Positions 7,183-34,148 of a stretch of DNA of 64,000 nt are shown piece by piece; position 1 is the first letter of the stretch, and every line of letters starts with the position of its first letter. The notes below the pieces were generated by a model. The model was not told the origin of the DNA. It made no database searches and saw only the letters and a list, made by a program, of their open reading frames with translations. This stretch comes from Bacteroidota bacterium (GTDB lineage: Bacteria > Bacteroidota > Bacteroidia > UKL13-3), in NCBI GenBank assembly GCA_947477885.1, contig CANJUD010000001.1, forward strand, positions 108,632 to 172,631, read 5' to 3'. The translations under genes and the position numbers were made by a program.

Positions 7183-7336
7183 CGTCATTGCGAGGAGGCT
7201 TACGACGTGGCAATCCCATGGAGTGTGTGCTCGATAAGAAATAATCTCCACATAATTCCATCAAACGGTGCACACTTCAATGGAATTGCCACGTAACCCC
7301 CGACTCAAAGCCAACGCGTCGTTCCTCGCAATGACG
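7183..7336. repeat. CGTC-tagged palindromic element E1 (REP/MITE-like)
   Basis: Perfect 14-bp terminal IR CGTCATTGCGAGGA / TCCTCGCAATGACG; internal core CCCATGGAGTGTGTGCTCG...GTGCACACTTC. Confidence 0.9.
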
Positions 7337-7381
7337 GTAATAGATTTTTGTTAATTTTTAGGCCTTAATGATATATAATTC

Positions 7382-8113
7382 CTACAAACCCAACACATCC
7401 CCCATCGAAAAAATGCCCTGCTTATTATATATATATTCTGCGGCTAAAACTGCTCCCAACGCAAAGCCATTGCGGTTATGGGCCGTATGCGTTATTTGTA
7501 TAGAATCAATTTCACTATCATAGTTCACTTGATGTGTTCCCGGAACTTCACTATCACGTCTGGACAAAATGGATAATTCTCCTGAATTAATTTCTACACT
7601 TTCATTTTCTAAAATTGCCTTGATAGTATGATAGTCTTTGTGGTTTTTAAAAATTCCTGAAGCCAAAGTTGATGCTGTTCCACTCGGATGATCTTTTTTA
7701 TGAATATGATGCGTTTCGTCGATAGATATATGATAGTCTTTTAACTTATTTATATAACTTGCCAACTGCTCATTAATCTTAAAAAATATATTTACTCCCG
7801 GACTAAAATTAGTCGCAGTTAACATACTTCCATTTTGTTCTTTACAATATTTTTCTGCATCGGCCAAATGTGCGTACCACCCTGTAGTTCCTGACACTAC
7901 TGGAATTTTATAATCAATACATTTTAACATATTGTCAAATGCATTTTCAGGTGTGGTAAGTTCGATAGCTACATCGCACTTTGAGATATTTTCTTGGGTA
8001 AACTCATGCAGGTTTTTTGAGTTGATGATTAACCCAATTTCATGCCCGCGTTGTAGTGCAACTTGTTCAACTATTTTGGATAATTTTCCGTGGCCTATTA
8101 ATGCTATTTTCAT
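7382..8113 (-). CDS. dapB: 4-hydroxy-tetrahydrodipicolinate reductase
   Basis: IALIGHGK, VVSGTTGW, ETHHIHKKDHPSGTA, RNGFALGAVLAA. Confidence 0.95.
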   Translation of the reverse strand: MKIALIGHGKLSKIVEQVALQRGHEIGLIINSKNLHEFTQENISKCDVAIELTTPENAFDNMLKCIDYKIPVVSGTTGWYAHLADAEKYCKEQNGSMLTATNFSPGVNIFFKINEQLASYINKLKDYHISIDETHHIHKKDHPSGTASTLASGIFKNHKDYHTIKAILENESVEINSGELSILSRRDSEVPGTHQVNYDSEIDSIQITHTAHNRNGFALGAVLAAEYIYNKQGIFSMGDVLGL

Positions 8114-8145
8114 ATTAGTATCAAGTACTTTTTACCAATTTATTT

Positions 8146-9225
8146 TCAAAGTATTATATTATATTTCTTTCCTATTTCTGTTAAATCATTATATACCAAT
8201 TGATGCAGTGGAATGCCATATAACATGCGTTCCTCGGCACACTCACGCTCTGGTTGCCCGGGTATGAGCACAGGATTTTCTATATTAATGGGGATAGATT
8301 TTTGAAATGTTTCGATCCACAAATCCATATTTCTATAATAGTCTTCTTTTTCCTGAAATGCATCTACCCGCATCACCCCAAATATATGGCCGACTCCTTT
8401 GCCAGGAGCATTGGGAAGCACAGGTAAAAAACTCACAAAAGGCGGCACGAACGGACCAAAATTGGCTCCACCCAATACACCAGAAAATATATCAACTACA
8501 GCACCTAATCCATAACCTTTATGATATCCCAATTCTGCAAAACTGCCCAGAGGCAATAGCGAACCTTTGTTCTTTAAAGCATTTGCATCAGTAGTGTTTT
8601 CGCCATTTTCAGTTTGTATCCAACCTTCTGGAACTGATTTGTTTTTGCGTTGAGCGATCTCTAATTTCCCATTTGCAGCTGCTGATGTAGCAGTATCTAC
8701 TATAACCGGATGTTGATTTCGGGAAGGAAATGCAAAGCACATCGGGTTTGTGCCCAGCATACGCTGCTTGCTGCCAGCAGGTGCCACAAGCGGACTCGCA
8801 TTGGTCATCGCAATTCCTATCATATCATGTGGCAAGGCTTTCATGGCATGGTGTGCGGCAATTCCAAAATGATTGGAGTTGTGAACGGTGACCCAAGCAC
8901 TTCCAACATTGTTTGCCTTTTCTATAGCTACATTCATTGCATAAGCACCTGACACCAAACCGAGAGCTAAATCAGCGTCAATATTAGCTGTAGAAGGCGT
9001 TTCGCGTGTTATATATATATTCGGTTTTGCATTGGCACGTCCCGCTTCCAATAATCTTATATAACCCGATAATCTAGCTACTCCATGTGAATCGATTCCG
9101 CGTAAATCGGCATCTAGAAGCGTATTTGCTCCTTGTAGTGCATGCTCACTTGAAAAGCCGACGTGCTCAAACACTTGAACCACAAAGCGGTGCAATTTTT
9201 CGGAGGCTATTATTACTTCTTCCAT
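8146..9225 (-). CDS. Ldh_2 family (malate/L-lactate-type) oxidoreductase
   Basis: ADLRGIDSHGV, NSNHFG, GTNPMCFAFP, HKGYGL, IPGQPE. Confidence 0.9.
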   Translation of the reverse strand: MEEVIIASEKLHRFVVQVFEHVGFSSEHALQGANTLLDADLRGIDSHGVARLSGYIRLLEAGRANAKPNIYITRETPSTANIDADLALGLVSGAYAMNVAIEKANNVGSAWVTVHNSNHFGIAAHHAMKALPHDMIGIAMTNASPLVAPAGSKQRMLGTNPMCFAFPSRNQHPVIVDTATSAAANGKLEIAQRKNKSVPEGWIQTENGENTTDANALKNKGSLLPLGSFAELGYHKGYGLGAVVDIFSGVLGGANFGPFVPPFVSFLPVLPNAPGKGVGHIFGVMRVDAFQEKEDYYRNMDLWIETFQKSIPINIENPVLIPGQPERECAEERMLYGIPLHQLVYNDLTEIGKKYNIIL

Positions 9226-9258
9226 TGAGATTGCAATGTTAAGATTTAATTTTGTGAA

Positions 9259-9618
9259 ATGGAAAAAGTATTACTCATAGGTGCAAGTCCCAATCCCGAG
9301 CGATATGCCTACAAAGCTTTTAAACTTTTACGGAGCCATGGGCATGAGGTGGTTTTGCTCAGTATAAAAAAAGACGAAATTGACGGCGTAAAATTTATCA
9401 ACGAATTCCCGAAGAACGAAAATTTTGATACGGTAACATTATATATAAATCCGCAAATACAAAAACAGTATTATAATGATTTGGTTGCATTAAAAACCAA
9501 ACGTATTATATTTAATCCTGGAACCGAGAATGAAGAACTATATAATTTATTGGATGAAAATAATATATTATATTTGGAGGCATGTACCTTGGTCTTGCTG
9601 AGAACGGGACAGTATTAA
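9259..9618 (+). CDS. CoA-binding domain protein (YccU-like)
   Basis: IGASPNPERYA, DTVTLYI, IFNPGTEN, EACTLVLL; TAATTTTG promoter at 9247-9254. Confidence 0.9.
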   Translation: MEKVLLIGASPNPERYAYKAFKLLRSHGHEVVLLSIKKDEIDGVKFINEFPKNENFDTVTLYINPQIQKQYYNDLVALKTKRIIFNPGTENEELYNLLDENNILYLEACTLVLLRTGQY

Positions 9619-9651
9619 ACTCCCAACATTAGCTCGAAATGTAGCATGTGT

Positions 9652-9802
9652 GCGTCATTCTGACGAGGAACGAGGAAGAATCCCATGGAGTGTATGCTCG
9701 GGAATTTCAATATCGACGAGCACACTTCTATGGGATTCTTCGTCTCGTCAGAAAATGGGAATAACTTTATATTAATATTTCTGACGAGACTCAGAATGAC
9801 GC
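9652..9802. repeat. CGTC-tagged palindromic element E2; overlaps the waaA stop
   Basis: 12-bp terminal IR GCGTCATTCTGA / TCAGAATGACGC; same core as E1; nested IR GTCTCGTCAGAAA / TTTCTGACGAGAC. Confidence 0.9.
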
Positions 9803-11032
9803 TAGTATCTTCCCCACCGCTCCTTCATTCCCCACCGCAAAATCTTTCGCCTTCTCCTGCTGCTCCTTCAAATAAACTTCATCACTTATATATCTTTCTA
9901 TAGTAGGATATAACTCACTCGCACTTTTTATTTGATGTGCAACTCCATTTTCTACAGCTTCTGCTGCTTCAGGAAACTTATTTGTTTTGGGTCCAAAAAT
10001 TACCGACTTACCATGCGATAGCGGTTCTATAATATTGTGCAATCCCTTGCCAAATGCTCCACCTACATAGGCGATACTTGCAAAACGATAGATGTTTGAA
10101 AGCATCCCTATATTATCAATGATCAATATTTGTTTGTCAGAATTGTGAGCATACTTTGAATACAACACTGAATTCGGAAATTGTTTGTGTATATGTTCTG
10201 AACGCGAAATATCGTGAGGTGCTATAATAAGTTTACAGGTTAAATTTGCAAATAAACTTTCATCTTCTGCCCAAGTACTACCTGCCACCATACAAAATGT
10301 ATCGCCTATAAAGTCTTCGATAATTTCATTGGTATAAGGTGTATGTGCTATCTGTAAACAGCGGTCGTAGCGTGTATCTCCCGTTACAGTGACGTTGTTA
10401 TAGTGTAGTGCTTGTAATAGTTTTTGCGAGTTCTCATTCTGCACAAAAAAGTGCGTGATATATGATAACATCTTGCGATGCAAGCCTCCATACCATTTAA
10501 AAAAAATCTGATTGGGGCGAAATAATCCTGAAACTAAATATACGGGAATTTTATTATTATATAATATATGTAAATAATGATACCAAAATTCATACTTCAC
10601 AAAAAATACTTGGTTTGGTTTTATATATTCGATAAACTTTTTCGCGTTCGCCAAAGTATCAGCCGGTAAATAAAATTTATAATCTATCAGTTTCGTATCC
10701 TTACAATACTCATATCCCGAGGGTGAAAAAAAAGTTGCCACAATCACCAAATCTTTTTTCTCTGCTTTTAGTTTTTCCATGAGTGGGCGGCCTTGTTCGT
10801 ATTCTCCGAGGGAGGCGAAGTGAAACCAAACAACATACGATGTACGATGTGCGATGTACGATGTTTTGAGTTCGGTCCAAATGTTTTTTCGTCCATCTAC
10901 CCACAGCTTTGCCTTCTTGTGACCTAGAGCGGCCATCAGTTTTGCTACGAGGGAGTAGAGGGCGATGAAAGTATTGTACAAAAAAATCATGTGGCCTGCA
11001 AAGTAACTGATGGAACGGGAAAGATAGAGCAC
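9791..11032 (-). CDS. waaA: 3-deoxy-D-manno-octulosonic acid (Kdo) transferase
   Basis: WFHFASLGEYEQGRP, FVKYEFW, TGDTRYD, IDNIGML, GLHNIIEP. Confidence 0.92.
   Translation of the reverse strand: MLYLSRSISYFAGHMIFLYNTFIALYSLVAKLMAALGHKKAKLWVDGRKNIWTELKTSYIAHRTSYVVWFHFASLGEYEQGRPLMEKLKAEKKDLVIVATFFSPSGYEYCKDTKLIDYKFYLPADTLANAKKFIEYIKPNQVFFVKYEFWYHYLHILYNNKIPVYLVSGLFRPNQIFFKWYGGLHRKMLSYITHFFVQNENSQKLLQALHYNNVTVTGDTRYDRCLQIAHTPYTNEIIEDFIGDTFCMVAGSTWAEDESLFANLTCKLIIAPHDISRSEHIHKQFPNSVLYSKYAHNSDKQILIIDNIGMLSNIYRFASIAYVGGAFGKGLHNIIEPLSHGKSVIFGPKTNKFPEAAEAVENGVAHQIKSASELYPTIERYISDEVYLKEQQEKAKDFAVGNEGAVGKILASF
10836..10863. repeat. Four tandem 7-mers (TACGATG-type) inside the waaA coding sequence
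   Basis: tacgatg tacgatg tgcgatg tacgatg; encodes part of KTSYIAHRTSYVV. Confidence 0.8.
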
Positions 11033-11059
11033 TTATTTGCTAATGCACAGCCAAGTTTC

Positions 11060-12127
11060 TTAATTACTTTTATCGTAACTTTCAACTGTCTTAAATAACA
11101 TTTCTGAAAAATTAAATATATCATCCAATATTGCTAAATCAAATTTGTTTTCTTTTTTCTGCTCATCTAAAATTCCGATTTGTTTTTTAGCACCTAGATA
11201 TAATCTACATATAGTTTTTCTGTTATTGTCATCAAGCAAAATTGCAAAGTATGACTGAGCATCCCTATGAGTAACTCTATCAGCTTTTATCTTCTGCCTC
11301 AATATAGTTTTTACTATCATAAACGCCTCTAATTCTTCATCAGTAGTAACTACTTTACTTTCTTCTGGTTTGCTTGCAATCTCTATTGCTTCTTGCTTTT
11401 TAGTTTCTTCATCTTCTTTTGATAAAGCAGCCTTCAATCTATCGTTGATTATATCATTTATGTTTTGTTGAATAGATTTTCTAACTAAGCCTGTAAACTG
11501 TTCTAAAACTTTAGCGGTAATTACACTGGGATATACCTGCTTAGCATAATATTTTACAAAATCAGGACTGGGATTCGCAAAATCAGTATTCAAAAGTACT
11601 TTCAACTCGTTTGTATATTTCAACTCACTTGCAGTATTAACAATATTATTAAAATCATAATGAGATTTATGGAATTTCTTTAGTTCTTCTATTTGGTTAT
11701 CTTTTATATCAAGAATATTAAATGCAAAAAACGGCTTCTCATCCATCTTATTAGGAGACACTAAATCAGTATAGAATTTATACTCGATGCCATTTGTTAG
11801 GATAGCAAACTTTGCTTTGGTTGTATGAAAATACCTGAATAATTGTGATTCATTAAGAACATTTAAAGTTGCACCACTCCATTTGCATTCAATTAATATA
11901 ATAGGTTCACCATTTTGCATAATAGCATAATCTATTTTCTCACCCTGCTTCATACCAATATCAGCAGTTAATTCAGGCGTTACTTCATTTGGATTGAACA
12001 CGTCATATCCTAGCTCGCGGATGAACGGCATTATCAAAGCATTCTTAGTTGCTTCTTCTGTTGAAAGTTGATCCTTCATAGTCAATACCCTTGCAGTTAG
12101 TGCTTTTATTTGGTCTTTGAATTCCAT
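11060..12127 (-). CDS. Stand-alone type I restriction HsdR N-terminal-like (PD-(D/E)XK) nuclease protein
   Basis: TEEATKNALIMPF, PE...KIDYAI...ILIECK, QLFRYF, ILTNGIEYKFYTD; no helicase domain and no hsdM/hsdS nearby. Confidence 0.75.
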   Translation of the reverse strand: MEFKDQIKALTARVLTMKDQLSTEEATKNALIMPFIRELGYDVFNPNEVTPELTADIGMKQGEKIDYAIMQNGEPIILIECKWSGATLNVLNESQLFRYFHTTKAKFAILTNGIEYKFYTDLVSPNKMDEKPFFAFNILDIKDNQIEELKKFHKSHYDFNNIVNTASELKYTNELKVLLNTDFANPSPDFVKYYAKQVYPSVITAKVLEQFTGLVRKSIQQNINDIINDRLKAALSKEDEETKKQEAIEIASKPEESKVVTTDEELEAFMIVKTILRQKIKADRVTHRDAQSYFAILLDDNNRKTICRLYLGAKKQIGILDEQKKENKFDLAILDDIFNFSEMLFKTVESYDKSN

Positions 12128-12335
12128 TTTATTTATTTATTATAGGTCGCAAAGTAAGATTCTACCCCTCATAATGACAAATTACTTGTAAACATTTTTT
12201 AATAAAAATTAAAAAGAATAACCAACAAACAAGCTATTGGTTAATAAATAGTTAGATAACTACATGAATAGAAGTAAAAAAGGCCTGCAAAGTAACTCAC
12301 AGAAACCTGTATTTTTGCAAACGAACTAAAACAGC

Positions 12336-13256
12336 ATGTCGATTATTGTAGAAAATTTGAGCAAACACTATGGCACCCAAAAGGCTGTGGATGCGATATC
12401 GTTCGAGGCCAAGGCGGGTGAGGTGCTCGGTTTTTTAGGTCCGAATGGTGCGGGTAAATCCACCACCATGAAAATGCTGACCTGCTATATCCCGCCCACA
12501 TCAGGCACTGCCACGGTTTGCGGTTTTAGTATTATAGACAAACCTTTGGAAGTTCGCAAACTCATTGGTTACTTGCCCGAGCTCAATCCATTATATACCG
12601 ATATGTTTGTACGTGAATATTTAAGATTCATGGCACAGATACACGGACTGGGCAAAGGGGCTAATAAACGTTGCGAAGAAATGATCAGCAATGTGGGACT
12701 TACCCCTGAGGCTCATAAAAAAATCGGTCAATTATCCAAAGGTTATAAGCAACGTGTGGGCCTTGCCCAATCGATGTTGCACAATCCCAAAGTGTTGATT
12801 TTAGATGAACCTACATCGGGTCTCGACCCCAACCAAATAGTTGATATCAGAAAGCTGATTAAGGAAATCGGCAGAGACCGCACTGTGATACTTTCTACGC
12901 ATATTATGCAAGAGGTACAAGCCATGTGCGATAGGGTTATTATAATAAACCAAGGAAAAATAGTTGCAGATGATAGAACGGAGAACTTAGGCAAACAAGG
13001 AATAGAAGAGTTTATTATAGTAGTTGAATTTGCTAAAGAAATAAATGATAACTTGCTTAAAAAGATAGCTGGCGTGAAAAGTATTACCGCTTTAGCAGGC
13101 AACCAATACAAACTTATTTGCGATACAGATATACGCGAACAAATTACCAAAGTGGCCTACGAAAACAATATGAATTTATTGGGACTGAATTTGGAAAAAC
13201 AAAAACTGGAAGATGTATTTAAAACCTTGACCAAAAAAGAACAGAAAGATGTATAG
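12336..13256 (+). CDS. gldA: Gliding motility ABC transporter ATP-binding subunit
   Basis: GPNGAGKS, LSKGYKQRVG, ILDEPTSGLDPNQ; directly upstream of gldF/gldG. Confidence 0.88.
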   Translation: MSIIVENLSKHYGTQKAVDAISFEAKAGEVLGFLGPNGAGKSTTMKMLTCYIPPTSGTATVCGFSIIDKPLEVRKLIGYLPELNPLYTDMFVREYLRFMAQIHGLGKGANKRCEEMISNVGLTPEAHKKIGQLSKGYKQRVGLAQSMLHNPKVLILDEPTSGLDPNQIVDIRKLIKEIGRDRTVILSTHIMQEVQAMCDRVIIINQGKIVADDRTENLGKQGIEEFIIVVEFAKEINDNLLKKIAGVKSITALAGNQYKLICDTDIREQITKVAYENNMNLLGLNLEKQKLEDVFKTLTKKEQKDV

Positions 13257-13977
13257 TATTTTTGTAAAAGAAATCAGGAGTTTTTTAAGTTCGCTTATAG
13301 CCTACGTAGTTATCATAGTGTTCCTATTGGCTATTGGTTTATTTATGTGGGTGTTCCCCGGCTATAATTTATTCGACGGGGGTTACGCCAACCTCGACAC
13401 CTTGTTTAACATCGCACCATGGGTATTTATATTTTTGATTTCGGCAATTACCATGCGTAGTTTTAGCGAAGAAAAAAAATCGGGAACTATAGAATTACTC
13501 ACTACCAAACCACTCACCGATTGGCAAATTGTATTGGCAAAATATTTCGCATCAGTAGTATTAGTTTTATTTGCTTTGATACCCACTATTATATTTTATA
13601 TATCAGTATCTAAACTTGCAAACCCTGCAGGAAATATAGACACTGGAGCCATAATGGGAAGTTATATAGGTTTGTTTTTTTTAGGAGCGGTATATGCATC
13701 TATCGGAATTTTTGCCAGTGCTGTTACCGATAATCAAATTGTAAGTTTCTTGGTATCAATGTTCCTGTGTTTCTTTCTGTATCAAGCTTTCAGCCTGTTG
13801 AGCGATTTTAAATTATTTGGTTCTTATGATAGATTGGTTGAATGGTTCAGTATAGAAACGCACTATAAAAATATAAGTGTGGGTGTAGTGGATAGCAGAG
13901 ATGTATTATACTTTATTAGTGTAATAATAATATTTTTATGGGGAAGTAAAACGGTTTTTGGAAGCAGAAAATGGTAA
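13249..13977 (+). CDS. gldF: Gliding motility ABC transporter permease
   Basis: FIFLISAITMRSFSEEKKSGTIELLTTKP, GVVDSRD; six TM segments. Confidence 0.9.
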   Translation: MYSIFVKEIRSFLSSLIAYVVIIVFLLAIGLFMWVFPGYNLFDGGYANLDTLFNIAPWVFIFLISAITMRSFSEEKKSGTIELLTTKPLTDWQIVLAKYFASVVLVLFALIPTIIFYISVSKLANPAGNIDTGAIMGSYIGLFFLGAVYASIGIFASAVTDNQIVSFLVSMFLCFFLYQAFSLLSDFKLFGSYDRLVEWFSIETHYKNISVGVVDSRDVLYFISVIIIFLWGSKTVFGSRKW

Positions 13978-15703
13978 GTATTTTATGAAAAACTACAAAA
14001 AACAAGCTATCATAGAACTCATTTTGGTGGGGGTACTTTTGGTATTGCTCAATTTTGTGGCAACTACCACTTTCATTAGGCTTGACCTTACCAAAGAGAA
14101 ACGTTTTACACTTTCAAATTCATCCAAAGAAATTGCAGCTTCGCTTCCGGATGTGGTATATTTTAAAGTATTTTTGGAAGGCGATTTTGATGCCCGATTT
14201 AAACGTTTGCAACAATCATTGAAAGAAACTTTAGATGAGTTTAAAAGTTATTCTAATGGCAAAATACAGTATGAGTTCATAGATCCAAATACGGAGATTA
14301 TGGATTCATCGGGCACCAATGAAGAAAAGCAGGAACGCTATACACGCATGCAGCAACTCATCGATTTGGGATTGAAGCCTACCTCCTTACAAATAGATCA
14401 GGACAATGAATTTTCGCGCAAAACTATATTTCCTGGTGCTTTAGTTTCATTTAAGGGAACAAAAGATTTTCCAATGAATTTTTTGCGTGAACAGTTTGGA
14501 ATGCCCGCAGAAATTGCATTGAACCAGAGTATAGAAAATTTGGAATATGATATAAGTAACGCATTAAAAAAATGTATAAACATTGAGAAGAAAAAAATTG
14601 CATATACTGTTGGCCATGGAGAGTTAGATAAGGACAATACTGCAAGCCTCACCAATGAACTCACCGATTACTATGATGTGGAGCGAATTAGAATTAGCGA
14701 TTTTACAGCATCAGAATTAAATAAGTTTGCTTGTTTAATAGTAGCAAAACCCGATTCGCTTTTCGAGAATTATGAATTGTCTAAATTAGACCAATATGTA
14801 ATGCACGGAGGCAAATTATTGATGCTTGTAGAAAATGTGCGTGCTGAGATGGACAGCCTAAAGGGTATGCAACAAACCTTTGCACCAATAGTTAATACAG
14901 GTTTAGAAGAAATGCTTTTCAGGTATGGAGTACGATTGAATCCTGTTTTGCTGAAAGACCTTGCCTGCACCCGCATTCAGCTTACGGAAAAATTACCCAA
15001 TGGGGGCACGCAGCCCGTATATAAACCTTGGACTTTTGCACCCTTATTCTTCCCGCAAAGCGAACATCCCATTGTGCGAAACCTTGAACCCGTTGCAGGA
15101 ATGTTTGGTGGCACACTCGATACCGTGGGTCGTGAAGGGGTGACAAAAACTGTTTTGCTCCGTTCAAGTGACCATGCAAAAATCCTACAAGCCCCAGTAA
15201 TGCTGAGCATTGAGGGAAGTTTGGTGAAGCAGCAAGATATGAAATTATATACGAACGAATTTTTGCCAGTTGCTGTTTTGCTTGAAGGGAAATTCAATTC
15301 TATATTTAAAAATTATGGCAATGATAGTATAACAAAATTATTAGATTATAAAAATCATATAGATAATAATCGTATGATAATAATTGCTGACGGAGATATT
15401 ATAAAAAATAAAGTATTACGACAAAAGGGAAATCTTATAGTTCCGCTTGGTTTTGACAATACGGATAATGTCCCTAAAACTTATGGAAACAAAAAGTTTT
15501 TGATGAATTGTATAGAATATTTGGTCGAAGGTTCCAAACTAATGGATGCCCGAAGTAAAAAAATTGAAATCAGACCCCTCGACCGCGAAAAAATAAAACT
15601 ATATAAAAGCCAATACCAATGGTTCAATATCGTATTCCCTATTTTGCTCATTATCATATTTGCCTATATCAATAATTTTATCAGAAAGCAACGAAATACT
15701 TAA
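13958..15703 (+). CDS. gldG: Gliding motility ABC transporter substrate-binding component
   Basis: RLDLTKEKRFTLS, ENLEYDISNA, LDQYVMHGGK, PVAVLLEGKF, IIIADGD, GNKKFLMNCIEYL; TM at both ends. Confidence 0.9.
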   Translation: MEAENGKYFMKNYKKQAIIELILVGVLLVLLNFVATTTFIRLDLTKEKRFTLSNSSKEIAASLPDVVYFKVFLEGDFDARFKRLQQSLKETLDEFKSYSNGKIQYEFIDPNTEIMDSSGTNEEKQERYTRMQQLIDLGLKPTSLQIDQDNEFSRKTIFPGALVSFKGTKDFPMNFLREQFGMPAEIALNQSIENLEYDISNALKKCINIEKKKIAYTVGHGELDKDNTASLTNELTDYYDVERIRISDFTASELNKFACLIVAKPDSLFENYELSKLDQYVMHGGKLLMLVENVRAEMDSLKGMQQTFAPIVNTGLEEMLFRYGVRLNPVLLKDLACTRIQLTEKLPNGGTQPVYKPWTFAPLFFPQSEHPIVRNLEPVAGMFGGTLDTVGREGVTKTVLLRSSDHAKILQAPVMLSIEGSLVKQQDMKLYTNEFLPVAVLLEGKFNSIFKNYGNDSITKLLDYKNHIDNNRMIIIADGDIIKNKVLRQKGNLIVPLGFDNTDNVPKTYGNKKFLMNCIEYLVEGSKLMDARSKKIEIRPLDREKIKLYKSQYQWFNIVFPILLIIIFAYINNFIRKQRNT

Positions 15704-15705
15704 TA

Positions 15706-15797
15706 CAGTAGTTAGTGGTCAGTAACCAGTAATCAGTGCCATACGGCAGCAAACTAATTACTGACCACTGACTACTGTTTACTGACCACTGACTACT
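15706..15797. repeat. 7-mer inverted-repeat element H1 (CAGTNNN family)
   Basis: cagtagt tagtggt cagtaac cagtaat cagt ... actaatt actgacc actgact actgttt actgacc actgact act. Confidence 0.88.
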
Positions 15798-15803
15798 AAA
15801 AAA

Positions 15804-17755: not shown

Positions 17756-17851
17756 TTTTTAATCACTTGACTATTTGAATAATTAAGTTTTTTTTGACAA
17801 AACTTCGTGGTAATTTGCAACCAAATTCTAGATTCTGAAATCTTGTAAGTA

Positions 17852-21211: not shown

Positions 21212-21292
21212 GCTACTATTTTCTTATTAGGTTTTCCAGCTGCGATTCGTAGCCGCTAGTTTGGCTATCTGTGATCAAGCTATAAATAATCT

Positions 21293-21320
21293 ATCTGTGC
21301 AAATCTGTGTTATCTGTGAG
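21293..21320. repeat. ATCTGTG-periodic short repeat arm
   Basis: atctgtg at 21293, 21303 and 21312. Confidence 0.5.
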
Positions 21321-21366
21321 CAACTTATATAGCAGATAACTGGTAAAATTCCCCGAATTTCGCAGC

Positions 21367-23141: not shown

Positions 23142-23146
23142 TACTT

Positions 23147-23221
23147 TGTCACCCTGAGTTTATCGAAGGGCGACATGGAAGAGCACTATTTTTGCCTGTC
23201 TTCGATAAGACTCAGACTGAA
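23147..23221. repeat. TGTCA...TGA(CA) palindromic element T1
   Basis: tgtcaccctgagtttatcgaagggcgaca ... tgtcttcgataagactcagactga; near-identical arms at 58387-58492. Confidence 0.85.
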
Positions 23222-23227
23222 AAAAAA

Positions 23228-25405: not shown

Positions 25406-25447
25406 TTAGAGGCCAAAAGTAAATCAGAAAAATGAAAAACTATAATC

Positions 25448-26836: not shown

Positions 26837-26982
26837 ATGTTGTTGTATTTTTAATTATTTCGCACTGCAAATTAAACTTAAATTATGCAGAAGAAAATAA
26901 AATACCTCTCGACTTTAAAAAAAAATTCTGATGCGTAGCGCTGCGCATCTCGATGGAAGTGCGTTTACTTTGATAATAAGGC

Positions 26983-27060
26983 CGTCATGCTGTCCCGACC
27001 TATCGGGATGTTTCAGCATCTAAAAACCTTTAAAGATGCTGAGACAAATGCAGCATCGCG
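26983..27060. repeat. CGTCATGCTG-type palindromic element with nested mini-hairpin
   Basis: cgtcatgctg[tcccgacctatcggga]tgtttcagcatct ... agatgctgagacaaatgcagcatcgcg; separate hairpin gatgcgtagcgctgcgcatc at 26930-26949. Confidence 0.7.
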
Positions 27061-27070
27061 TGATAAAAAA

Positions 27071-27733
27071 TTACTCAGAAACCTTGCTCTTTTTTTTCTC
27101 CTTAATATAAGTTCTGATTAAAGTTCCCGTGGCTACTACAATCATAACCAAGGTAATGAGCCCAATATGCTCGCCCACCCATGGGAATTTTTTGGCGAGC
27201 CAATAGCCACTGCCCACCATAGCAATAGTCCATAATAAACTACCCACCACATTATATAATAAAAACTTGCGTGAATCTATTTTTGCAACACCTGCTACAA
27301 TAGGTGCAAACGTGCGTATAATGGGTAAAAAGCGGCCTAGTATTAAAGCCATCCCGCCATATTTATCATAGAAATTTTTGGAGAGGGCAACGTAGCTTTT
27401 TTTGAAAATCAGGGAATTTTCTCTCACAAATAACTTCTCACCAACACGCTTTCCAAAAGCATAACCAACTGTATTGCCCAGTATGGCTGCGGCATTAATG
27501 GAAAGCAAAACGGTCCAAAAACTATAATCTAATTTGCCATTGGCACAAAGCAATCCCGCTGCAAATAATAATGCATCGCCAGGCAAAAAGAAACCGATAA
27601 GCAGACCCGTTTCGGCAAATACTATCAAAAGCAATAGCCAAAAACCGCCATAGGTAATCAACTCTTTCGGGTCAAATACATTGGGTACTTCTTGAGCTAT
27701 CTGTAATAATTGCATACGAAAGTTTGTAGCCAC
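27071..27733 (-). CDS. dedA: DedA/VTT family membrane protein
   Basis: FAETGLLIGFFLPGDALLF, GRFLPIIRTFAPIVAG. Confidence 0.93.
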   Translation of the reverse strand: MATNFRMQLLQIAQEVPNVFDPKELITYGGFWLLLLIVFAETGLLIGFFLPGDALLFAAGLLCANGKLDYSFWTVLLSINAAAILGNTVGYAFGKRVGEKLFVRENSLIFKKSYVALSKNFYDKYGGMALILGRFLPIIRTFAPIVAGVAKIDSRKFLLYNVVGSLLWTIAMVGSGYWLAKKFPWVGEHIGLITLVMIVVATGTLIRTYIKEKKKSKVSE

Positions 27734-27808
27734 AATTTTAGGTAAAGCCCGTCAATAAAACACGTGAAATATTTGAACCGTTGATAATGAATTACGAATT
27801 ACGAAGAG

Positions 27809-27942
27809 GTATCAAGTATCAAGTCGCTAGTATCAGTTATTTGCTACCTTTAATAGGTATCTGCATATGAAAAAAATAACTGAAAAGTAAAAGTCCGGAA
27901 GCTGTGACAAATACTTGATACTTGATACTAGCTACTTGATAC
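27809..27942. repeat. 7-mer inverted-repeat element H3 (GTATCAA family)
   Basis: gtatcaa gtatcaa gtcgcta gtatcag ttatttg ... caaatac ttgatac ttgatac tagctac ttgatac; preceded by a gaattac gaattac arm near 27789-27805. Confidence 0.85.
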
Positions 27943-27956
27943 AAAAAATCGTGTTT

Positions 27957-28409
27957 CTAATCCCTGTTTTTACTATCTATTATAATTGTAACTGGCCCAT
28001 CATTGATTAAATGCACTTGCATATCAGCACCAAATTGCCCTGTGGCTATGGGTTTGCCCAAATCTGTTACGATTAGTTCTATCAGTTTTTCATATAAAGG
28101 TATGGCCGCATCTGGTCGTGCAGCATCTATAAAACTTGGCCTATTGCCTTTTTGGGTTGATGCATAAAGTGTGAATTGACTCACCAACAAAAGCTCTGCA
28201 TTAATATCTTTAATGCTCAAATTCATGAGCCCTGCATCATCTGAGAAAATACGCAGATTGCATAGTTTATTGGTTAGCCTCTGAGCATCTCCTATATCAT
28301 CGTTGGTACAAATACCTACAAGCACCATCAGCCCTTTGCTAATTTGGGCTGCTGTATTTCCTTCAATAGAAACTTGTGCTTCTGAAACTCTTTGTATTAC
28401 TAAACGCAA
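27957..28409 (-). CDS. dtd: D-aminoacyl-tRNA deacylase
   Basis: MRLVIQRV, LLVSQFTLY, GNRPSF, GQFGADMQV, NDGPVT. Confidence 0.97.
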   Translation of the reverse strand: MRLVIQRVSEAQVSIEGNTAAQISKGLMVLVGICTNDDIGDAQRLTNKLCNLRIFSDDAGLMNLSIKDINAELLLVSQFTLYASTQKGNRPSFIDAARPDAAIPLYEKLIELIVTDLGKPIATGQFGADMQVHLINDGPVTIIIDSKNRD

Positions 28410-28419
28410 TTTGTGTGAT

Positions 28420-29370
28420 TTATTTTTTTAGCTCGTGATCTATATAATATATGAAAAATATCTTTTCATATTCAAGCATATTTTTCATGGCTCTATTCCA
28501 ATCCAACCAGCCAAGCCCAACTTGTGTTTTGCCACAACATATAGTGGGCAAAAATGAGTATATAGTAGGGTTTTTGTTTGCAATAAATTTATGAAAATAA
28601 AATATCATATATATATCCCCATCACTGCAAGCTTTATGTGTATCATAAAACCACATACAAAAACTACTATCATAACGAAGATTAACAATTTCAGCGGTAT
28701 TTCCAATCTCTAATAGTGAATCAGAAAAAACATCAATTTGGTCATTGAATATATAGTTCCTAAATTTGATATTGGTCGACATTGTAAGGTTATACGAAAA
28801 GTCCCCAAAATCTTTAGAATTTAGTGTCATGGGTGAAGCCTTGATGTCTTTGTCAACGATAATATGGTAATTAATACAAGTTGAGATAATTATTTTTTCT
28901 TCTTCATTCAGCATCGGAAGAAAAAGGTTGGCGGGCACTTCAATTAAATCAACCACCGAGTCATTCTCCAAATCGGGGTTATTGAAACGGTACATGATTT
29001 TTATTCGTGTAATTTGGGTTAATGCTTCACTAATATTCGGGTCCCAAAAATTAAACTTAATACCAACAATATCATTCCTAGTAAAAGGGAAATCCACGTT
29101 TTTCTTATATTGCTTTAGTAAAAACCGGCCCACATAAACTCCTTCAATACCACCCACTTTTTCACTTTCATAAGTATTAAACTGATCGGAGAAACATTTA
29201 AAAGTAGGAGAGTTTAGTGAGTCGAAAAGTTTGTCAATATATTTATTATAAACATTTTGAGTATAGGCCCCCATGTCTTTTGCAGATAAAATTTTATGCT
29301 GCCCACACACATGGGTACAAAAAACTATATAAATTGTACTAAAAAGTAAATACTTTCGCATCTTATTCAA
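28420..29370 (-). CDS. Secreted hypothetical protein with two apparent internal repeats
   Basis: Signal peptide; 316-aa ORF; no confident family assignment. Confidence 0.6.
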   Translation of the reverse strand: MNKMRKYLLFSTIYIVFCTHVCGQHKILSAKDMGAYTQNVYNKYIDKLFDSLNSPTFKCFSDQFNTYESEKVGGIEGVYVGRFLLKQYKKNVDFPFTRNDIVGIKFNFWDPNISEALTQITRIKIMYRFNNPDLENDSVVDLIEVPANLFLPMLNEEEKIIISTCINYHIIVDKDIKASPMTLNSKDFGDFSYNLTMSTNIKFRNYIFNDQIDVFSDSLLEIGNTAEIVNLRYDSSFCMWFYDTHKACSDGDIYMIFYFHKFIANKNPTIYSFLPTICCGKTQVGLGWLDWNRAMKNMLEYEKIFFIYYIDHELKK

Positions 29371-29397
29371 AAATTAACGCAAACATACATCAAAAAG

Positions 29398-30174
29398 TTG
29401 CATACCAATCACCCACCCATAAGTGCTGTAATTATAGCCAACAATGCGTCTCGATCGATAGGAGAAGTTGTCACTGCCATGAAGTGGTGCGATGAAGTGC
29501 TGGTAGTGGACTCAGGGTCAACAGATAATACAGTTGAACTATGCAAAACACTTGGTTGTACTATTATATACCATAAGTTTGAAAGCTATGGACAGCAAAA
29601 ATACTTTGCTGTATCGCAAGCAAAAAATGATTGGGTATGGGTAATTGATAGTGATGAAATCGCTACGACAGAAATTATAGAAGAGGCAAAAGAAAAAATA
29701 AGTTCAGGTAAATATGTAGGTTTGATGGTGCCAATTTCATTGGTTTTTGTTGGCAAATTATTGCGGTTTGGCAATGAGTTTAAAAAACCACATCTGCGTT
29801 TGTTCAATAGAAAATATGGGAACTATAATGATAGTTTGGTGCATGAAGATGTGATATTAGAAGGCAAAATTGGCAAACTTCACAATCATGTTTTGCATTA
29901 TAGTTATTATAATATTGATGACTATTTTAAAAAATTCAATAGTTACACAACCCATGCTGCACAGCAGATGCAAAGCCAAAATAAAAATGTAAATATATTA
30001 TCCGCTATTATAAAACTACCTTTTCAGTTTATTATATTATATATATTTAGAGGTTTAATTTTGGATGGAATTCAAGGTTTACTTTGGGCAACATTTTCTA
30101 GCTGGTACTCATTTGTAAAATATATAAAACTATGGGAAATGAATCATATGAAAAATAAGAAAACTACACAATGA
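29398..30174 (+). CDS. GT2 glycosyltransferase (WaaE/KdtX-like LPS core)
   Basis: EVLVVDSGSTDNT, WVWVIDSDE, HLRLFNR, VHED, HYSY. Confidence 0.88.
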   Translation: MHTNHPPISAVIIANNASRSIGEVVTAMKWCDEVLVVDSGSTDNTVELCKTLGCTIIYHKFESYGQQKYFAVSQAKNDWVWVIDSDEIATTEIIEEAKEKISSGKYVGLMVPISLVFVGKLLRFGNEFKKPHLRLFNRKYGNYNDSLVHEDVILEGKIGKLHNHVLHYSYYNIDDYFKKFNSYTTHAAQQMQSQNKNVNILSAIIKLPFQFIILYIFRGLILDGIQGLLWATFSSWYSFVKYIKLWEMNHMKNKKTTQ

Positions 30175-30578
30175 GAGTAATGGCTTTCGATATCGGACTA
30201 AAAAGAATTGGCGTAGCAGTTACCGATCCGCTACAAATTATCGCAACTTCTGTAGGAACTTATTCTCCCAATGATATCGCAAACTATTTGAATGAATATA
30301 TAAAAACCGAACCGCTGGAACTTTTTGTATTGGGTAAACCGCTGCAAATGGATGGAAGCAATTCTGAATCCTATCATTTGGTAGAGCAGTTTTCGGCATG
30401 GCTGCAAACTACTTTTCCTGATATCCCACAGAAATGGATTGATGAAAGACTCACTTCCAAAATGGCGTCACAAGCTTTGTTCGATAGCGGACTGAAAAAA
30501 AAACAGCGTCAAGATAAAAAGTTGTTGGACGCAGTATCGGCTACCTTAATTTTGCAAACTTATTTACAATCCAAATAA
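30171..30578 (+). CDS. ruvX: YqgF/RuvX family RNase H-fold nuclease
   Basis: AFDIGLKRIGVAVTD, DERLTSKMA, DAVSATLILQ. Confidence 0.95.
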   Translation: MRVMAFDIGLKRIGVAVTDPLQIIATSVGTYSPNDIANYLNEYIKTEPLELFVLGKPLQMDGSNSESYHLVEQFSAWLQTTFPDIPQKWIDERLTSKMASQALFDSGLKKKQRQDKKLLDAVSATLILQTYLQSK

Positions 30579-31144
30579 TGATTCTTCCAATATATGCATA
30601 CGGTGAACCTACGCTTCGTAGTGAAACAATTGAAATACAACGCTCATTCCCACACCTCGAAGAGATAATAAAAAATATGTGGGATACCATGTATCATACC
30701 AATGGTGTTGGATTAGCAGCCCCGCAAGTAGGCCTTTCCATCCGCCTGTTCGTGGTCGATTCAACAGAGATGTATAAAGATGAAGAAGATGAAAACCCCG
30801 GCACCGGCATCAAAAAAGTTTTTATTAACCCTTCAATAATCAGTGAGTCCGGCCATGAATGGGAATATGAGGAGGGATGTCTCAGTATTCCGGGTATTAG
30901 AGAATTTGTAACGCGCAAATCAGATATCAAAATCAGATATTATGATGAAAATTTTCAAACCCAGACTGATGAGTACGATGGGCTAACTGCACGTGTTATC
31001 CAACATGAATTCGACCACATAGAAGCTATATTATTTGTAGATAAAATATCATCACTAAAACGCCAATTGAATCGCAACAAATTGCTACAAATTAGCCGCG
31101 GTTTTGTGGATGTGAAATACCGAATGAAATTCACGAGACGATAA
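30578..31144 (+). CDS. def: Peptide deformylase
   Basis: GVGLAAPQVG, EGCLSIP, QHEFDH. Confidence 0.97.
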   Translation: MILPIYAYGEPTLRSETIEIQRSFPHLEEIIKNMWDTMYHTNGVGLAAPQVGLSIRLFVVDSTEMYKDEEDENPGTGIKKVFINPSIISESGHEWEYEEGCLSIPGIREFVTRKSDIKIRYYDENFQTQTDEYDGLTARVIQHEFDHIEAILFVDKISSLKRQLNRNKLLQISRGFVDVKYRMKFTRR

Positions 31145-31156
31145 CATTACAAAATT

Positions 31157-31348
31157 TCCGTCATTACGGAGCGGTGCGTAAGAATGTGTGTTAGGGCGAC
31201 GAAGCAATCTCCTTGAAGTGTGCTCAAACAGATTGAAATTCCCGGGCAAGTCCTACAGATTTTCGCAGAGAAAATTCCTTACCGAGCATACACCCGATGG
31301 GATTGCCACGTCGCCCCGAATAAGATTCGGGGTCCTCGCAATGACGGA
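31157..31348 (-). repeat. CGTC-tagged palindromic element E3 (core inverted relative to E1/E2/E4)
   Basis: tccgtcatt / aatgacgga ends; core reads GAAGTGTGCTC...CGAGCATACACCCGATGGGATT on the + strand; nested ccccgaataagattcgggg. Confidence 0.85.
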
Positions 31349-31354
31349 CATTTC

Positions 31355-33952
31355 TTATACCCCTAACTGAAAACCTATTGTTGGCGAACCCAAACCTGGG
31401 CCAGCACTAATATGTTCCACATCTTCAACTGTCAATGTTTTTACCATTTCGGGTGTGCGGTCTTCAGCTTTCATAGCTGCCAATCTTAGGTTTTGTTGCT
31501 TCACGGCATCATCCATCAGCTTCCGCACAGCTCGTGCATTGCCGAAAAATTTATCACGATGCGTCCAAATATTTTCTAGTACTTTTTCTAGCATTGTTTT
31601 GGCATCTGCGTCTGGTAATATTCCGCGTTCAGTAAGCATTTTGGAAGCAATCTGTTTCAACTGCTCCAAGTCATAATCTTCGAACACCATCATTCTATCG
31701 AAACGTGATTTGAGACCTGGGTTTGATTCGATAAACCTTGTCATAGGCTCTGTATAACCGGCAACTATTACAATAAATTCGCCGCGGTTATCTTCCATCC
31801 TTTTTAGGATAGTTTCTACTGCTTCTTTTCCGAAGTCATTATCACTACCATGCAATGCGTAAGCTTCGTCAATAAAGAGAACCCCGCCCATCGCCCTGTC
31901 AATCAATTCTTTGGTTTTTAGTGCGGTTGAACCTATATGATTGCCAACCAAAGCCTGTCTGTCACACTCTACCAAATGCCCCCGTTCTAATATGCCCAGT
32001 GCTTTATATATTTGGGCAAGTATGCGAGCCACCGTAGTTTTTCCTGTTCCCGGATTTCCTGTAAACACCGCATGCAGATTAAGCAAACTGCGTAAATCTT
32101 TTCCAGTTTCTCTATAATATCTTACCAGTTTTACAAGCTCATCAATCTCTGTTTTTGTTTTGGTAAGGCCCACCATATTTGATAGCTGCAACAACGAGTC
32201 ACGCAGTAAATCTTCATCAACTGGTATAGATGCAATTTCACGATTTTTCTTTTCGAAGATTGGCACCAAATCTGCAACTTCAATTGCCATCAAACTTTCT
32301 TTCGATAGTTCTTCTGGATTTGGTAGCTGCATAATGCGCAAGCCCAAATTCATTTTAGCCTCATCTAATATATTATTGACCAAACGTGCATTACCAAAGT
32401 TTTGGTTGCGGGCTCTATAGGCTTCTACCAACTTCTTATACATAAAAATCTGTGCATCCGGGCTAAATTCTACCATCCGTTTTTGTGCAGCATATAAAGC
32501 TATTTTTTCAAGCTCGTCGGGTTTATAATCTGGATATTCAAAAGTCATTTGGAAACGTGATTTGAGACCTGGGTTTGAATCTAAAAAACTATTCATTTGT
32601 TCGGGATAACCTGCTACAACAATTGCCAAATCGCCTTCGCCATCACTCATTTCACGCACCAAAACCTCTATAGCTTCTTTTCCAAAATCTTTGCTGTCAT
32701 CATCTTTGCGTGAAAGGCTATAGGCTTCGTCAATAAACAAAATTCCACCTCTAGCTTTTTTGATTGCCTCTTTAGTTTTGGGTGCGGTTTGTCCAATAAA
32801 TTCAGCAACCAATTCACTGCGGTCAGCTTCATAAACATGGCCTTTGCTTAGCAGCCCAAGATTATGATATATTTTACCGAGCATACGTGCTACTGTGGTT
32901 TTTCCTGTTCCGGGATTACCTGTAAAAACAGCATGTAGATTTATTTTATCAGTGTCGGTAAAACCTTTTTTGCGGCGTAATTTTATAAAGTTAAGGTAAC
33001 TAGTATAATCATGGACTTTCTTTTTAATACCTCCCAAACCAATGAGGCCGTTCATTTCACTCATCAGCTCTTCAAACGATTTGCTGCTATTAATTTCAGG
33101 CAGTGTTTTTTCTTGCAGCCTGCTGCGGCTGGGAGTAAAATATATTTGTTCGTCGTCAGTTATTTCTACTTCTTCGGCTCCAATTTCAAAGGGAATTATC
33201 GCTACAATTTGGTTCATAAATACCAACTCCACCGTATATATATCGCTGCTCCAACTTCCTTTTATATCGCTACCCCAGCCCACCGTGCAATGTATTTCCT
33301 CATCGCCCGGATATATAAATAATAGTTTGTCGACGGAGCCTTTTAATTGCCCGCTCACTGTTTTGAAATTGAATATCAATTCGCAGGCCCAGTAGTCATG
33401 TTCTTTCAGTAGATTTTTGGCATTCAGTTCTACCCAAACATAACGGGTATCGGCACTGTTAAAGGTTTTTAGATATACGCGGTCTTGCTCGGGAACATTG
33501 GCATCTGGCCCTTCATATATTTTAATTTCATTGATATCGAAATAAGGATTTTCATGGGCATTGGCCAGGCCATTATGTTCTACATAAAAGCTTCGCTCGG
33601 CAGCCATTTTGTTTTCTATCCAGGCTTCCCATCTGTATGAACCTCGCTTCCAGTAATTACCTTTGTTTTTAACCCCCCAACCTTCTCTGACAAATACCAC
33701 ACTGTCTTCTTTTTTTACGGTACGGTCGCAATTCAAATTGCATATTTCGGCTCCATCTGGGCCAAAACATTTGAGACGGATATGCACCTCCCAATCCTGA
33801 TCGTCGAAAGATTTATTAAAAAATGAAAACTCACAATATATATAAGATAGTTCGCTCTCGTCATATACCAGTCGGTAGTTCTTCTCATTATTTGCCAACC
33901 ACTCGGTACTGGCAAAAATCCGCAAATCCTTAAATTTGTGCTTCATATCCAT
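31355..33952 (-). CDS. CbbX/SpoVK/EccA-family ATPase with two AAA modules and a duplicated N-terminal domain
   Basis: Two copies each of GNPGTGKT, LFIDEAY, SNPGLKSRF and FGNAR. Confidence 0.88.
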   Translation of the reverse strand: MDMKHKFKDLRIFASTEWLANNEKNYRLVYDESELSYIYCEFSFFNKSFDDQDWEVHIRLKCFGPDGAEICNLNCDRTVKKEDSVVFVREGWGVKNKGNYWKRGSYRWEAWIENKMAAERSFYVEHNGLANAHENPYFDINEIKIYEGPDANVPEQDRVYLKTFNSADTRYVWVELNAKNLLKEHDYWACELIFNFKTVSGQLKGSVDKLLFIYPGDEEIHCTVGWGSDIKGSWSSDIYTVELVFMNQIVAIIPFEIGAEEVEITDDEQIYFTPSRSRLQEKTLPEINSSKSFEELMSEMNGLIGLGGIKKKVHDYTSYLNFIKLRRKKGFTDTDKINLHAVFTGNPGTGKTTVARMLGKIYHNLGLLSKGHVYEADRSELVAEFIGQTAPKTKEAIKKARGGILFIDEAYSLSRKDDDSKDFGKEAIEVLVREMSDGEGDLAIVVAGYPEQMNSFLDSNPGLKSRFQMTFEYPDYKPDELEKIALYAAQKRMVEFSPDAQIFMYKKLVEAYRARNQNFGNARLVNNILDEAKMNLGLRIMQLPNPEELSKESLMAIEVADLVPIFEKKNREIASIPVDEDLLRDSLLQLSNMVGLTKTKTEIDELVKLVRYYRETGKDLRSLLNLHAVFTGNPGTGKTTVARILAQIYKALGILERGHLVECDRQALVGNHIGSTALKTKELIDRAMGGVLFIDEAYALHGSDNDFGKEAVETILKRMEDNRGEFIVIVAGYTEPMTRFIESNPGLKSRFDRMMVFEDYDLEQLKQIASKMLTERGILPDADAKTMLEKVLENIWTHRDKFFGNARAVRKLMDDAVKQQNLRLAAMKAEDRTPEMVKTLTVEDVEHISAGPGLGSPTIGFQLGV

Positions 33953-34018
33953 AAGAACAAAATTAGGGGAAAATGGTTGCTTTTACAATGGGTGTAAAGA
34001 ATTTTTTGAATAGGAAGC

Positions 34019-34148
34019 CGTCATTTTGACGAGGAACGAGGAAGAATCCCATTGGGTGTATGCTCGGGCTGTTTTAATTCTCGTGGGTTTCAATATGATG
34101 GTGCACACTTCGAAGGGATTCTTCGCGGGTAGCCCGCTCAGAATGACG
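34019..34148. repeat. CGTC-tagged palindromic element E4
   Basis: cgtcattttgacgaggaacgaggaagaatccca ... gggattcttc...ctcagaatgacg; left arm nearly identical to E2. Confidence 0.88.

Follow-up and report, generated by a model that had tools for sequence, protein, structure and literature searches.

Dispersed CGTC-tagged hairpin repeats in a freshwater Bacteroidota genome as probable gene-less descendants of ssn cassettes

Introduction

CGTC-tagged repetitive extragenic palindromes (REPs), including dRS3 of Neisseria and examples from Bacteroidetes, were catalogued by Di Nocera, De Gregorio and Rocco (BMC Genomics 2013; PMC3733652). Most are head-to-head dimers that lie downstream of genes, and they "apparently lack a dedicated transposase"; the families CGTC-1 to CGTC-4 have stems of 8–9 bp and loops of 4–5 nt, and reportedly no dedicated enzyme (PMC3733652). 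A longer form of dRS3, the NTS repeat of Neisseria (CGTCATTCCCGCGMAVGCGGGAATCYRG), is bound by SsnA, a single-domain GIY-YIG protein of 94 aa from Neisseria meningitidis (Chenal et al., Nat Commun 2025; PMC11893778). In our study, four dispersed CGTC-tagged elements, E1 to E4, were analyzed in a stretch of 64,000 nt (hereafter the window) from a freshwater Bacteroidota bacterium (assembly GCA_947477885.1, contig CANJUD010000001.1, positions 108,632 to 172,631) and compared with these systems.

SsnA binds only single-stranded DNA (ssDNA), in one orientation only, and cuts a few nucleotides upstream of the unit, and Ssn acts neither on double-stranded DNA nor on RNA (PMC11893778). The ssn genes of many phyla are flanked by Ssn-related motifs (SRMs), and an architecture like that of an insertion sequence, NTS-ssnA-NTS, has been raised as a hypothesis only (PMC11893778). 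We found that E1 to E4 are, with a probability of about 0.8, gene-less head-to-head dimers of variant SRMs that descended from ssn cassettes. They add a new example to the system published in 2025 rather than representing a new kind of element.

Results

ssn cassettes in the genome

The genome holding the window has 3.1 Mb, a GC content of 36.7% and 25 contigs; C-numbers below denote its contigs, and coordinates without a contig are positions in the window. The elements were bounded by CGTCATT and AATGACG at 7183–7336 (E1), 9653–9801 (E2), 31159–31346 (E3, reverse) and 34019–34148 (E4). Their end units were of two stem types, type A (ATTGC/GCAAT) and type B (ATTCT/AGAAT). The initial annotation of the window had reported no cognate nuclease within it, and this agrees with our result, as the cognate gene sits outside, on C12 and also on C1. 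A search of the genome with PF01541 returned UvrC and seven small GIY-YIG genes. Three of the seven, here called family 1, were located 60–144 nt from CGTCATT tags, and two of these were intact and lay inside full-length elements with the same ends. The other four small genes were 2–14 kb from tags, where the mean spacing of tags in the genome is 11.9 kb.

The two GIY-YIG genes that are flanked by copies of the repeat, a situation that the initial annotation had considered, were found at C12:10137-10662 and C1:561655-562174. The C12 cassette contained type-B units at both ends, the same inner arms as the gene-less elements and, between the arms, an intact open reading frame (ORF). The C1 locus was its type-A equivalent, with an intact gene and inverted CGTCATT units at the bounds; a decayed copy of the cassette with a stop codon was found from C1:559336 onwards. 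The intact ORFs, at C12:10252-10545 and C1:561791-562084, both encoded 98 aa and matched PF01541 at 54.4 and 57.1 bits (cut-off 22.6), over model positions 2–76 of 78. No second domain was found in the NCBIfam search of the nuclease, and the NCBIfam and PDB searches gave only weak generic GIY-YIG matches (TIGR01453, 22.6 bits; 1ZG2, UPF0213, E = 0.15), which were of no help for sub-family assignment.

Alignment of E2 with the C12 cassette covered the first 58 nt and the last ~85 nt, in which the unusual 53-nt loop of the right unit falls, and the left unit of E2 was the same, letter for letter, as the one preceding the intact ssn gene on C12. About 390 bp of the cassette, the ORF included, were missing from E2. 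E2 and the gene-bearing parent have terminal inverted repeats in common, as is expected of a miniature inverted-repeat transposable element (MITE). About 50 gene-less copies in four species contained the same loop of 15–16 nt, which was absent from the gene-bearing cassette. This suggests the multiplication of one deleted derivative rather than many independent deletions, and points to an amplification of the gene-less form as such.

An intact ssn cassette was also observed at locus L080, in a metagenome-assembled genome labelled Flavobacteriaceae, in a gene context matching that of the decayed copy at C1:559046-559720; in both, the left unit directly follows the TAA stop codon of the preceding gene. 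At the end of one contig (C16:44543-44775), a different small GIY-YIG gene lay directly 3′ of a tRNA gene and its terminator. Among 2.9 million viral contigs, only three relatives of the nuclease gene were found, so that phages are no obvious vehicle.

Association of the nuclease gene with the end hairpin

The end units were found to keep the frame of the NTS, CGTCATT-xy-loop-y′x′-AATCYC, in which a C follows the palindrome. The frame was examined in 80 homologues of the C12 protein and their flanks, from Bacteroidota, Chlorobiota, Alpha-, Beta- and Gammaproteobacteria, Patescibacteria, Chloroflexota and others. Within 350 nt of the gene, CGTCATT was present upstream (+) at 39 of the 80 loci, downstream (−) at 36 and on both sides at 26, where chance would give about 2% per side. 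A complementary y′x′AATC lay at most 70 nt from 173 of the 235 tags at these loci. Five co-varying types of end stem were found (GC/GC, CC/GG, TC/GA, CT/AG and AC/GT), and the end hairpin shows genuine covariation across the 80 loci.

A homologue from Novosphingobium was 49% identical to the C12 protein (E = 2e-34), whereas the UPF0213-like GIY-YIG genes of the genome holding the window were only 29% identical to it. The Novosphingobium gene was flanked on both sides by CGTCATTCCTGCGAACGCAGGAATCCAG, which is the NTS with one compensatory pair change. Gene and repeat were also found to occur together among 41 relatives of the genome: at least 10 units were present in 9 of the 11 with a family-1 gene and in 2 of the 30 without it (Fisher p = 7.7e-6), whereas the reversed pattern, used as a control, gave 0–1. 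One of the two gene-less genomes with at least 10 units is only 66% complete.

The likeness to the Ssn/SRM system has several parts. In both, a single-domain GIY-YIG protein of about 95 aa is encoded between inverted hairpin repeats, which open with CGTCATT and close with AATCY; tens of unit copies are dispersed between genes, and gene and repeat co-occur across genomes. The tyrosines of the GIY and YxG motifs are 11 residues apart in both proteins, Y8/Y19 here and Y6/Y17 in SsnA. The units differ in their stem and loop, which are 5 bp and 10–53 nt here, often with further hairpins, and 9 bp and 3 nt in the NTS. The dispersed copies, unlike those of the described system, are dimers around an extra 22-bp palindromic stem.

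Structure of the elements

The pattern CGTCATTNNGA was found eight times in the window, against 0.39 expected, and none of 100 shuffles reached eight. When the end sequence was looked for as a string in the literature, only unrelated primers came up. The genome contained 63 CGTCATTNNGA ends, about 15 copies of the inner motif and about 38 units of the form CGTCATT-xy-loop-y′x′-AAT-C(C/T)C. Each of E1 to E4 was a nested imperfect palindrome, in which two inverted end units surround an inner palindromic stem of 22 bp. The end unit consisted of CGTCATT, a two-base stem extension (GC or CT), a loop of 10–53 nt, the two complementary bases and AATC(C/T)C, which gives a stem of 5 bp. Its loop usually opened with GAG and closed with CGA(A/G), and often contained a further small hairpin. 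The inner arm of 22 nt, AATCCCATNGAGTGTRTGCTCG, pairs with CGAGCAYACACTCNATGGGATT, and the inner loop was of two types, of 15–16 nt (GGAATTTAATCTYGY) or about 33 nt.

The four elements were present as the initial annotation had described them, with boundaries within 1–2 nt (those of E2 sit 1 nt further inside on both sides). The inner motifs AATCCCATNGRGTGTRTGCTCG ... GWGCACACTTC and, in E2 to E4, the loop GGG(AA)TTTCAAT were also found, and the proposal of a modular, non-autonomous REP/MITE-like family was borne out. The two end types that it distinguished hold for the left ends, whereas the right ends are more varied: E3 has CGTCATTACGGAGC at its far end, and E2 and E4 have CGTCATTCTGAG... 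at their right ends.

E1 (7183–7336) has no gene and consists of two type-A end units, arranged head to head, with the inner palindrome between them. Its left SRM-like unit (7183–7215, +) reads CGTCATT-GC-GAGGAGGCTTACGACGTG-GC-AATCCC and its right unit (7284–7336, −) is of the long-loop type A; the inner palindrome (7212–7287) contained AATCCCATGGAGTGTGTGCTCG, a loop of the 33-nt type and then GGTGCACACTTCAATGGAATT. E2 (9653–9801), likewise gene-less and of type B, derives from the ssn cassette C12:10137-10662 by deletion. Its left unit (9653–9682, +) reads CGTCATT-CT-GACGAGGAACGAGGA-AG-AATCCC, the 53-nt loop of its right unit (9734–9801, −) itself forms a hairpin, and its inner palindrome (9679–9737) has the 16-nt loop GGAATTTCAATATCGA.

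E3 (31159–31346) is a type-A gene-less element, for which the orientation of the initial annotation corresponds to the minus strand. The loop of its unit at 31301–31346 (−) contained an inserted mini-hairpin, CCCCGAATCTTATTCGGGG, at 31314–31332; the second unit (31159–31212, +) is of a long-loop type with a degenerate stem (AC/GC), and this type also ends the ssn cassette C1:561655-562174. E4 (34019–34148) is a type-B gene-less element with a left unit (34019–34048, +) of the form CGTCATT-TT-...-AG-AATCCC, with one stem wobble, and a right unit (34117–34148, −) with the loop GAGCGGGCTACCCGCGA. A solo degenerate type-A SRM-like unit, missing from the initial annotation, was found at ~5110–5168 (−) and reads CGTCATTGCGAGGA...TCCCGATAGCTATCGGGAG...GACGAAGCATT.

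In folding predictions, every element formed one long hairpin on either strand. The z-scores of the minimum free energy as ssDNA, computed against mononucleotide shuffles, were −6/−8 for E1, −10.7/−10.6 for E2, −3.2/−2.6 for E3 and −2.1/−3.5 for E4 on the two strands, and were strongest for E1 and E2.

A mini-hairpin of the form (T/C)CCCGA-N(3-8)-TCGGG(A/G) was observed to recur in the loops of SRM-like units, both here and in unrelated phyla. It was seen in the window at 31314–31332, 5121–5140 and 26993–27008, the last being a free-standing copy, and at the loci L114, L084, L067 and G035; it looks as if it were an independently inserted unit. Type-B elements were also observed nested in apparent type-A hairpins at C2:52250-52415 and C6:99845-99987, where CGTCATTGCGAGGA...GCTGC is followed by CGTCATTCTGAG..., which suggests that they inserted into the loop of a unit already present there.

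The inner core

The initial annotation had described a conserved, oriented inner core, which was proposed as a functional internal site. When all copies in the genome were compared, the repeat resolved into three nested layers (end unit, 22-nt arm and loop), and for this reason the AATCCCAT of the initial annotation straddles the end unit and the inner arm. The AATCCC half of the proposed core is the 3′ half of the end hairpin unit; what remains of the core forms a palindromic stem, continuous with the inner inverted repeat of the cassette that bears the gene. In sequence terms, this palindrome was confined to the four species of this genus. The asymmetry of the core is real in the four copies of the window but does not hold as a property of the family. 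Among 24 loop-oriented copies from four congeneric genomes, the arms were equal (22/22 nt) in 11, the left arm was 1 nt shorter in 8 and the right arm in 3. The difference is a 1-nt length change in the GTGT/CACA run, so that the asymmetry does not amount to a conserved polarity. Copies of the sub-family that has retained the C12-type left unit do share one polarity.

The inner stem was 86% paired, against 29–43% with slid partners. It scored 0.088 for covariation; the shuffles had a mean of 0.110, and 495 of the 500 scored at least as high; compensatory changes beyond those of the shuffles were not found in the core. The Rfam scan of the whole window gave no match at the gathering thresholds. 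A core that is restricted to the genus and has neither covariation, nor fixed polarity, nor an Rfam match looks like an inherited inner arm of the cassette, and unlike an RNA or protein site under selection. The proposal of a functional internal site is not supported. The outcome is largely the one that the initial annotation had named as contrary to it: the core is confined and does not covary, and the ends belong to a catalogued superfamily (PMC3733652, PMC11893778).

Turnover between related species

The congeneric genomes are only ~85% identical to this genome. At 8 of the 9 orthologous sites examined, occupancy was found to differ between congeners. E1 was common to this genome and G002, where it has the other type of inner loop. 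E2 was absent from the orthologous sites of the congeners, E3 from the site in G001–G003, and E4 from the site in G001 and G003. In the other direction, the orthologous sites of this genome (G000) lacked five elements that are present in G001 or G002. One of these sites, C11:14725, where G001 carries an element, was a nearly clean empty site. The number of copies within the genus ranged from 31 to 96 units. Identical left units of 34 nt were present at four loci in this genome and also in another species; a metagenome scan with this unit returned one further contig, from a related species, and a heptamer array was present at that place in this genome.

Different families were observed at one and the same intergenic site in sister species: it was empty in some, and in others it was occupied by a family-1 SRM dimer, a family-2 palindrome, a heptamer array or another hairpin. 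Such mixed sites were the orthologous sites of E1, E2 and E3, and C11:92421-92506, C4:132447-132537, C5:22337-22410 and C7:109260-109408. Family 2 is a second SRM-like family, GTCAYCCTGAG...TCGAAGG, which often occupies the alternative allele. The co-location of repeat families looks to be above chance, given ~40–60 family-2 units per genome. In the window, gene-less palindromes of the second family were observed at 23147–23219 and 58387–58491, with TGTCAYCCTGAGTTTATCGAAGGGCGA ... TCTTCGATAA(G/A)ACTCAGACTGA. Related units, CCGTCCTGAGCGGAGTCGAAGG, flank UPF0213-like GIY-YIG genes at C14:20861-21079 and C12:46798-47016, which suggests a second pair of nuclease and repeat in the same genome.

Neighboring genes and other repeats

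The genes next to the elements were housekeeping genes (parE/gyrB-like, dapB, Ldh_2, CoA-binding, waaA, def, a double-AAA ATPase and DeoC-like). E1 was located between dapB (stop 7382, minus) and the parE/gyrB-like gene (start 7081, minus), E2 between the convergent CoA-binding and waaA/kdtA genes, and E3 between the convergent def (stop 31144) and double-AAA ATPase (stop 31355) genes; E1 to E3 lie 8–45 nt past stop codons. E4 was found in a divergent promoter region, with the start of the AAA ATPase gene at 33952 (minus) on one side and that of the DeoC-like gene at 34233 on the other. The waaA/kdtA-like gene takes its TGA stop and its final three codons (A-S-F) from the right end of E2, 9791–9802 (minus), and the corresponding protein of G002 ends in ...AVGKIF*.

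Three intact genes for Y1 (IS200/RAYT-like) proteins were observed at C8:147413-147754, C6:86249-86596 and C10:84756-85097. They are flanked by short hairpin repeats of their own, such as CCGTCGGTTGAAACCGACGG, AACCCCGAAGGGGTGA and CCCACGATTGAAATCGTGGG, which are separate REP-like systems. The contigs C23–C25 (3–4 kb each) had a GC content of ~60–63%, against 36–38% in all others, and are probably contaminants of the bin.

Discussion

The end units of E1 to E4 belong to the superfamily of CGTC-tagged REPs. They share with it the CGTC tag at one end, a stem that opens with A-T pairs and a short unpaired tail starting with C, as well as the arrangement as head-to-head dimers, often heterodimers, downstream of genes and between convergent genes. 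The shorter stem of 5 bp and the long modular loops of 10–53 nt place the element outside the four catalogued CGTC-REP families, from which the linked cognate GIY-YIG gene also distinguishes it. The Neisseria intergenic mosaic elements (NIMEs) consist of RS segments flanked by dRS3/NTS inverted repeats, and resemble the elements here in having a repeated middle part between inverted CGTC-type hairpin units. The middle segments are unrelated in sequence, and here the middle is a palindrome from the arms of the ssn cassette. Classical MITEs are likewise short and gene-less, share terminal inverted repeats with a gene-bearing parent and are amplified in the deleted form; here, in contrast, the parent lacks a gene for any known transposase, and a duplication of the target site was not seen.

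A history can be proposed that joins these features. The ancestral form would have had the order SRM, inner inverted repeat, ssn, inner inverted repeat, SRM. By analogy with SsnA and the tested homologues, the 98-aa product of ssn, a putative member of the Ssn family, would bind the SRM hairpin on ssDNA in one orientation only and would nick a few nucleotides 5′ of the CGTC tag, the end units being recognized by the two Ssn paralogues. Because the two SRMs are inverted, one cleavable unit would be present at the 5′ edge of each strand. Host repair or recombination at the nicks, with other copies as the template, could then spread the gene-less units. The same repair step may swap modules, that is end type and loop type, and may replace one resident hairpin element by another at gene ends. 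The mobilization step taken by itself, which like the module exchange is only proposed, we consider possible rather than probable.

Several points weigh against this account of the elements. The published degenerate SRM motif, HGTCWYN(0-2)YYVSBRHN(0-5)WNVSBRGN(0-2)RNCYNB, which is a search tool and not a definition, matched none of E1 to E4 and only 2 of the 80 homologous loci, and its two matches in the whole genome were both unrelated. The exact NTS sequence gave no match to E1 to E4. A stem of 5 bp with large loops is a far weaker hairpin than that of the NTS. The placement of the protein in the Ssn clade (cd10448) is putative, and the evidence for it, the identity to the Novosphingobium homologue, is indirect. 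The cleavage chemistry is likewise carried over from the literature on SsnA and the tested homologues, which are from other clades than this freshwater Bacteroidota host, and a single nick per strand does not by itself explain excision, insertion or transposition. At the orthologous sites of the congeners, neither a target-site duplication nor a base-exact insertion boundary was found, and in the one clean case, at C11:14725, the insert has 16 + 8 extra nt outside the tags. Base-exact empty sites were not obtained, as the congeners have diverged too far and other repeats occupy most of the alternative alleles. In all 24 public contigs coding for the identical protein, the C12 cassette occupied one and the same locus, and it gives no sign of recent movement; since all 24 have the same context, they are uninformative on polymorphism.

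This fixed position of the C12 cassette would be expected if the SRM dimers were domesticated marks, that is, sites spread anciently and no longer moving, at which Ssn restricts or modulates incoming or exposed ssDNA during transformation, conjugation or at replication gaps, as has been proposed for the NTS in Neisseria. There, DNA flanked by the NTS transforms less well when SsnA is present (PMC11893778), and in our genomes E1 is kept at the same site in two species and the elements lie between housekeeping genes. Such marks would agree with much of the data but are incompatible with the rapid turnover, and occupancy differs at 8 of 9 orthologous sites; the range of 31 to 96 units within the genus and the identical 34-nt left units at four loci here and in another species also argue against them, and we regard this explanation as somewhat unlikely. 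The opposite extreme would be that the ssn cassettes are true mobile elements, with the 98-aa hydrolytic ssDNA nickase as their "transposase", and that SRM dimers multiply in trans like MITEs, landing preferentially in, or overwriting, other hairpin repeats at gene ends. The mixed families at one site, the module differences in orthologous copies and the type-B elements nested in type-A loops would fit this reading, which nevertheless seems to us rather unlikely in so strong a form.

The location of E1 to E3 shortly past stop codons, with E2 and E3 between convergent genes, together with the stable hairpins predicted and the argument of Di Nocera et al. that many CGTC REPs are transcribed (PMC3733652), would also suit elements that act in RNA, as terminators, mRNA stabilizers or RNase III sites whose function maintains the hairpins. 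E4, however, lies between divergent promoters, both strands fold about equally, without strand bias, and the inner stem, 86% paired as it is, has a covariation below the shuffle mean. As there is also no Rfam match and Ssn is inactive on RNA (PMC11893778), a function of this kind is improbable. The dimers also resemble REPINs, the REP dimers associated with RAYT, in being dispersed intergenic hairpin dimers with a single-copy gene that is flanked by the same units and recognizes them as ssDNA, and four PF01797 genes, of the IS200-like Y1 transposases that could mobilize such elements, are present in the genome. The enzyme here is a hydrolytic GIY-YIG nuclease and not an HUH tyrosine transposase, and the tag is CGTC and not GTAG. 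Copies flanking a Y1/RAYT gene, the other association considered in the initial annotation, were not found: the nearest CGTCATT tag is 3.4–7.1 kb from each Y1 gene (mean spacing 11.9 kb), and these genes have their own, unrelated flanking hairpins. No transposase was linked to CGTC repeats by Di Nocera et al. (PMC3733652) either. With all four Y1 genes unlinked, at least 3.4 kb from any tag, and provided with hairpins of their own, RAYT-driven REPINs were rejected as an explanation that is hardly credible.

The descent of E1 to E4 from ssn cassettes assigns a puzzling modular repeat without an enzyme to the Ssn/SRM system. It indicates that the published SRM search motif misses a large branch in Bacteroidota, with a short stem and long modular loops, and it extends the system by showing that the ssn cassette has MITE-like gene-less descendants that appear to have been amplified as such. 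The two Ssn paralogues of this genome, each with its own stem type, are a natural pair for studying how so small a protein reads a hairpin. How CGTC repeats spread was left open in 2013 and was a hypothesis only in 2025; the turnover of hairpin families at identical intergenic sites offers a lead on the spread of REP-like repeats.

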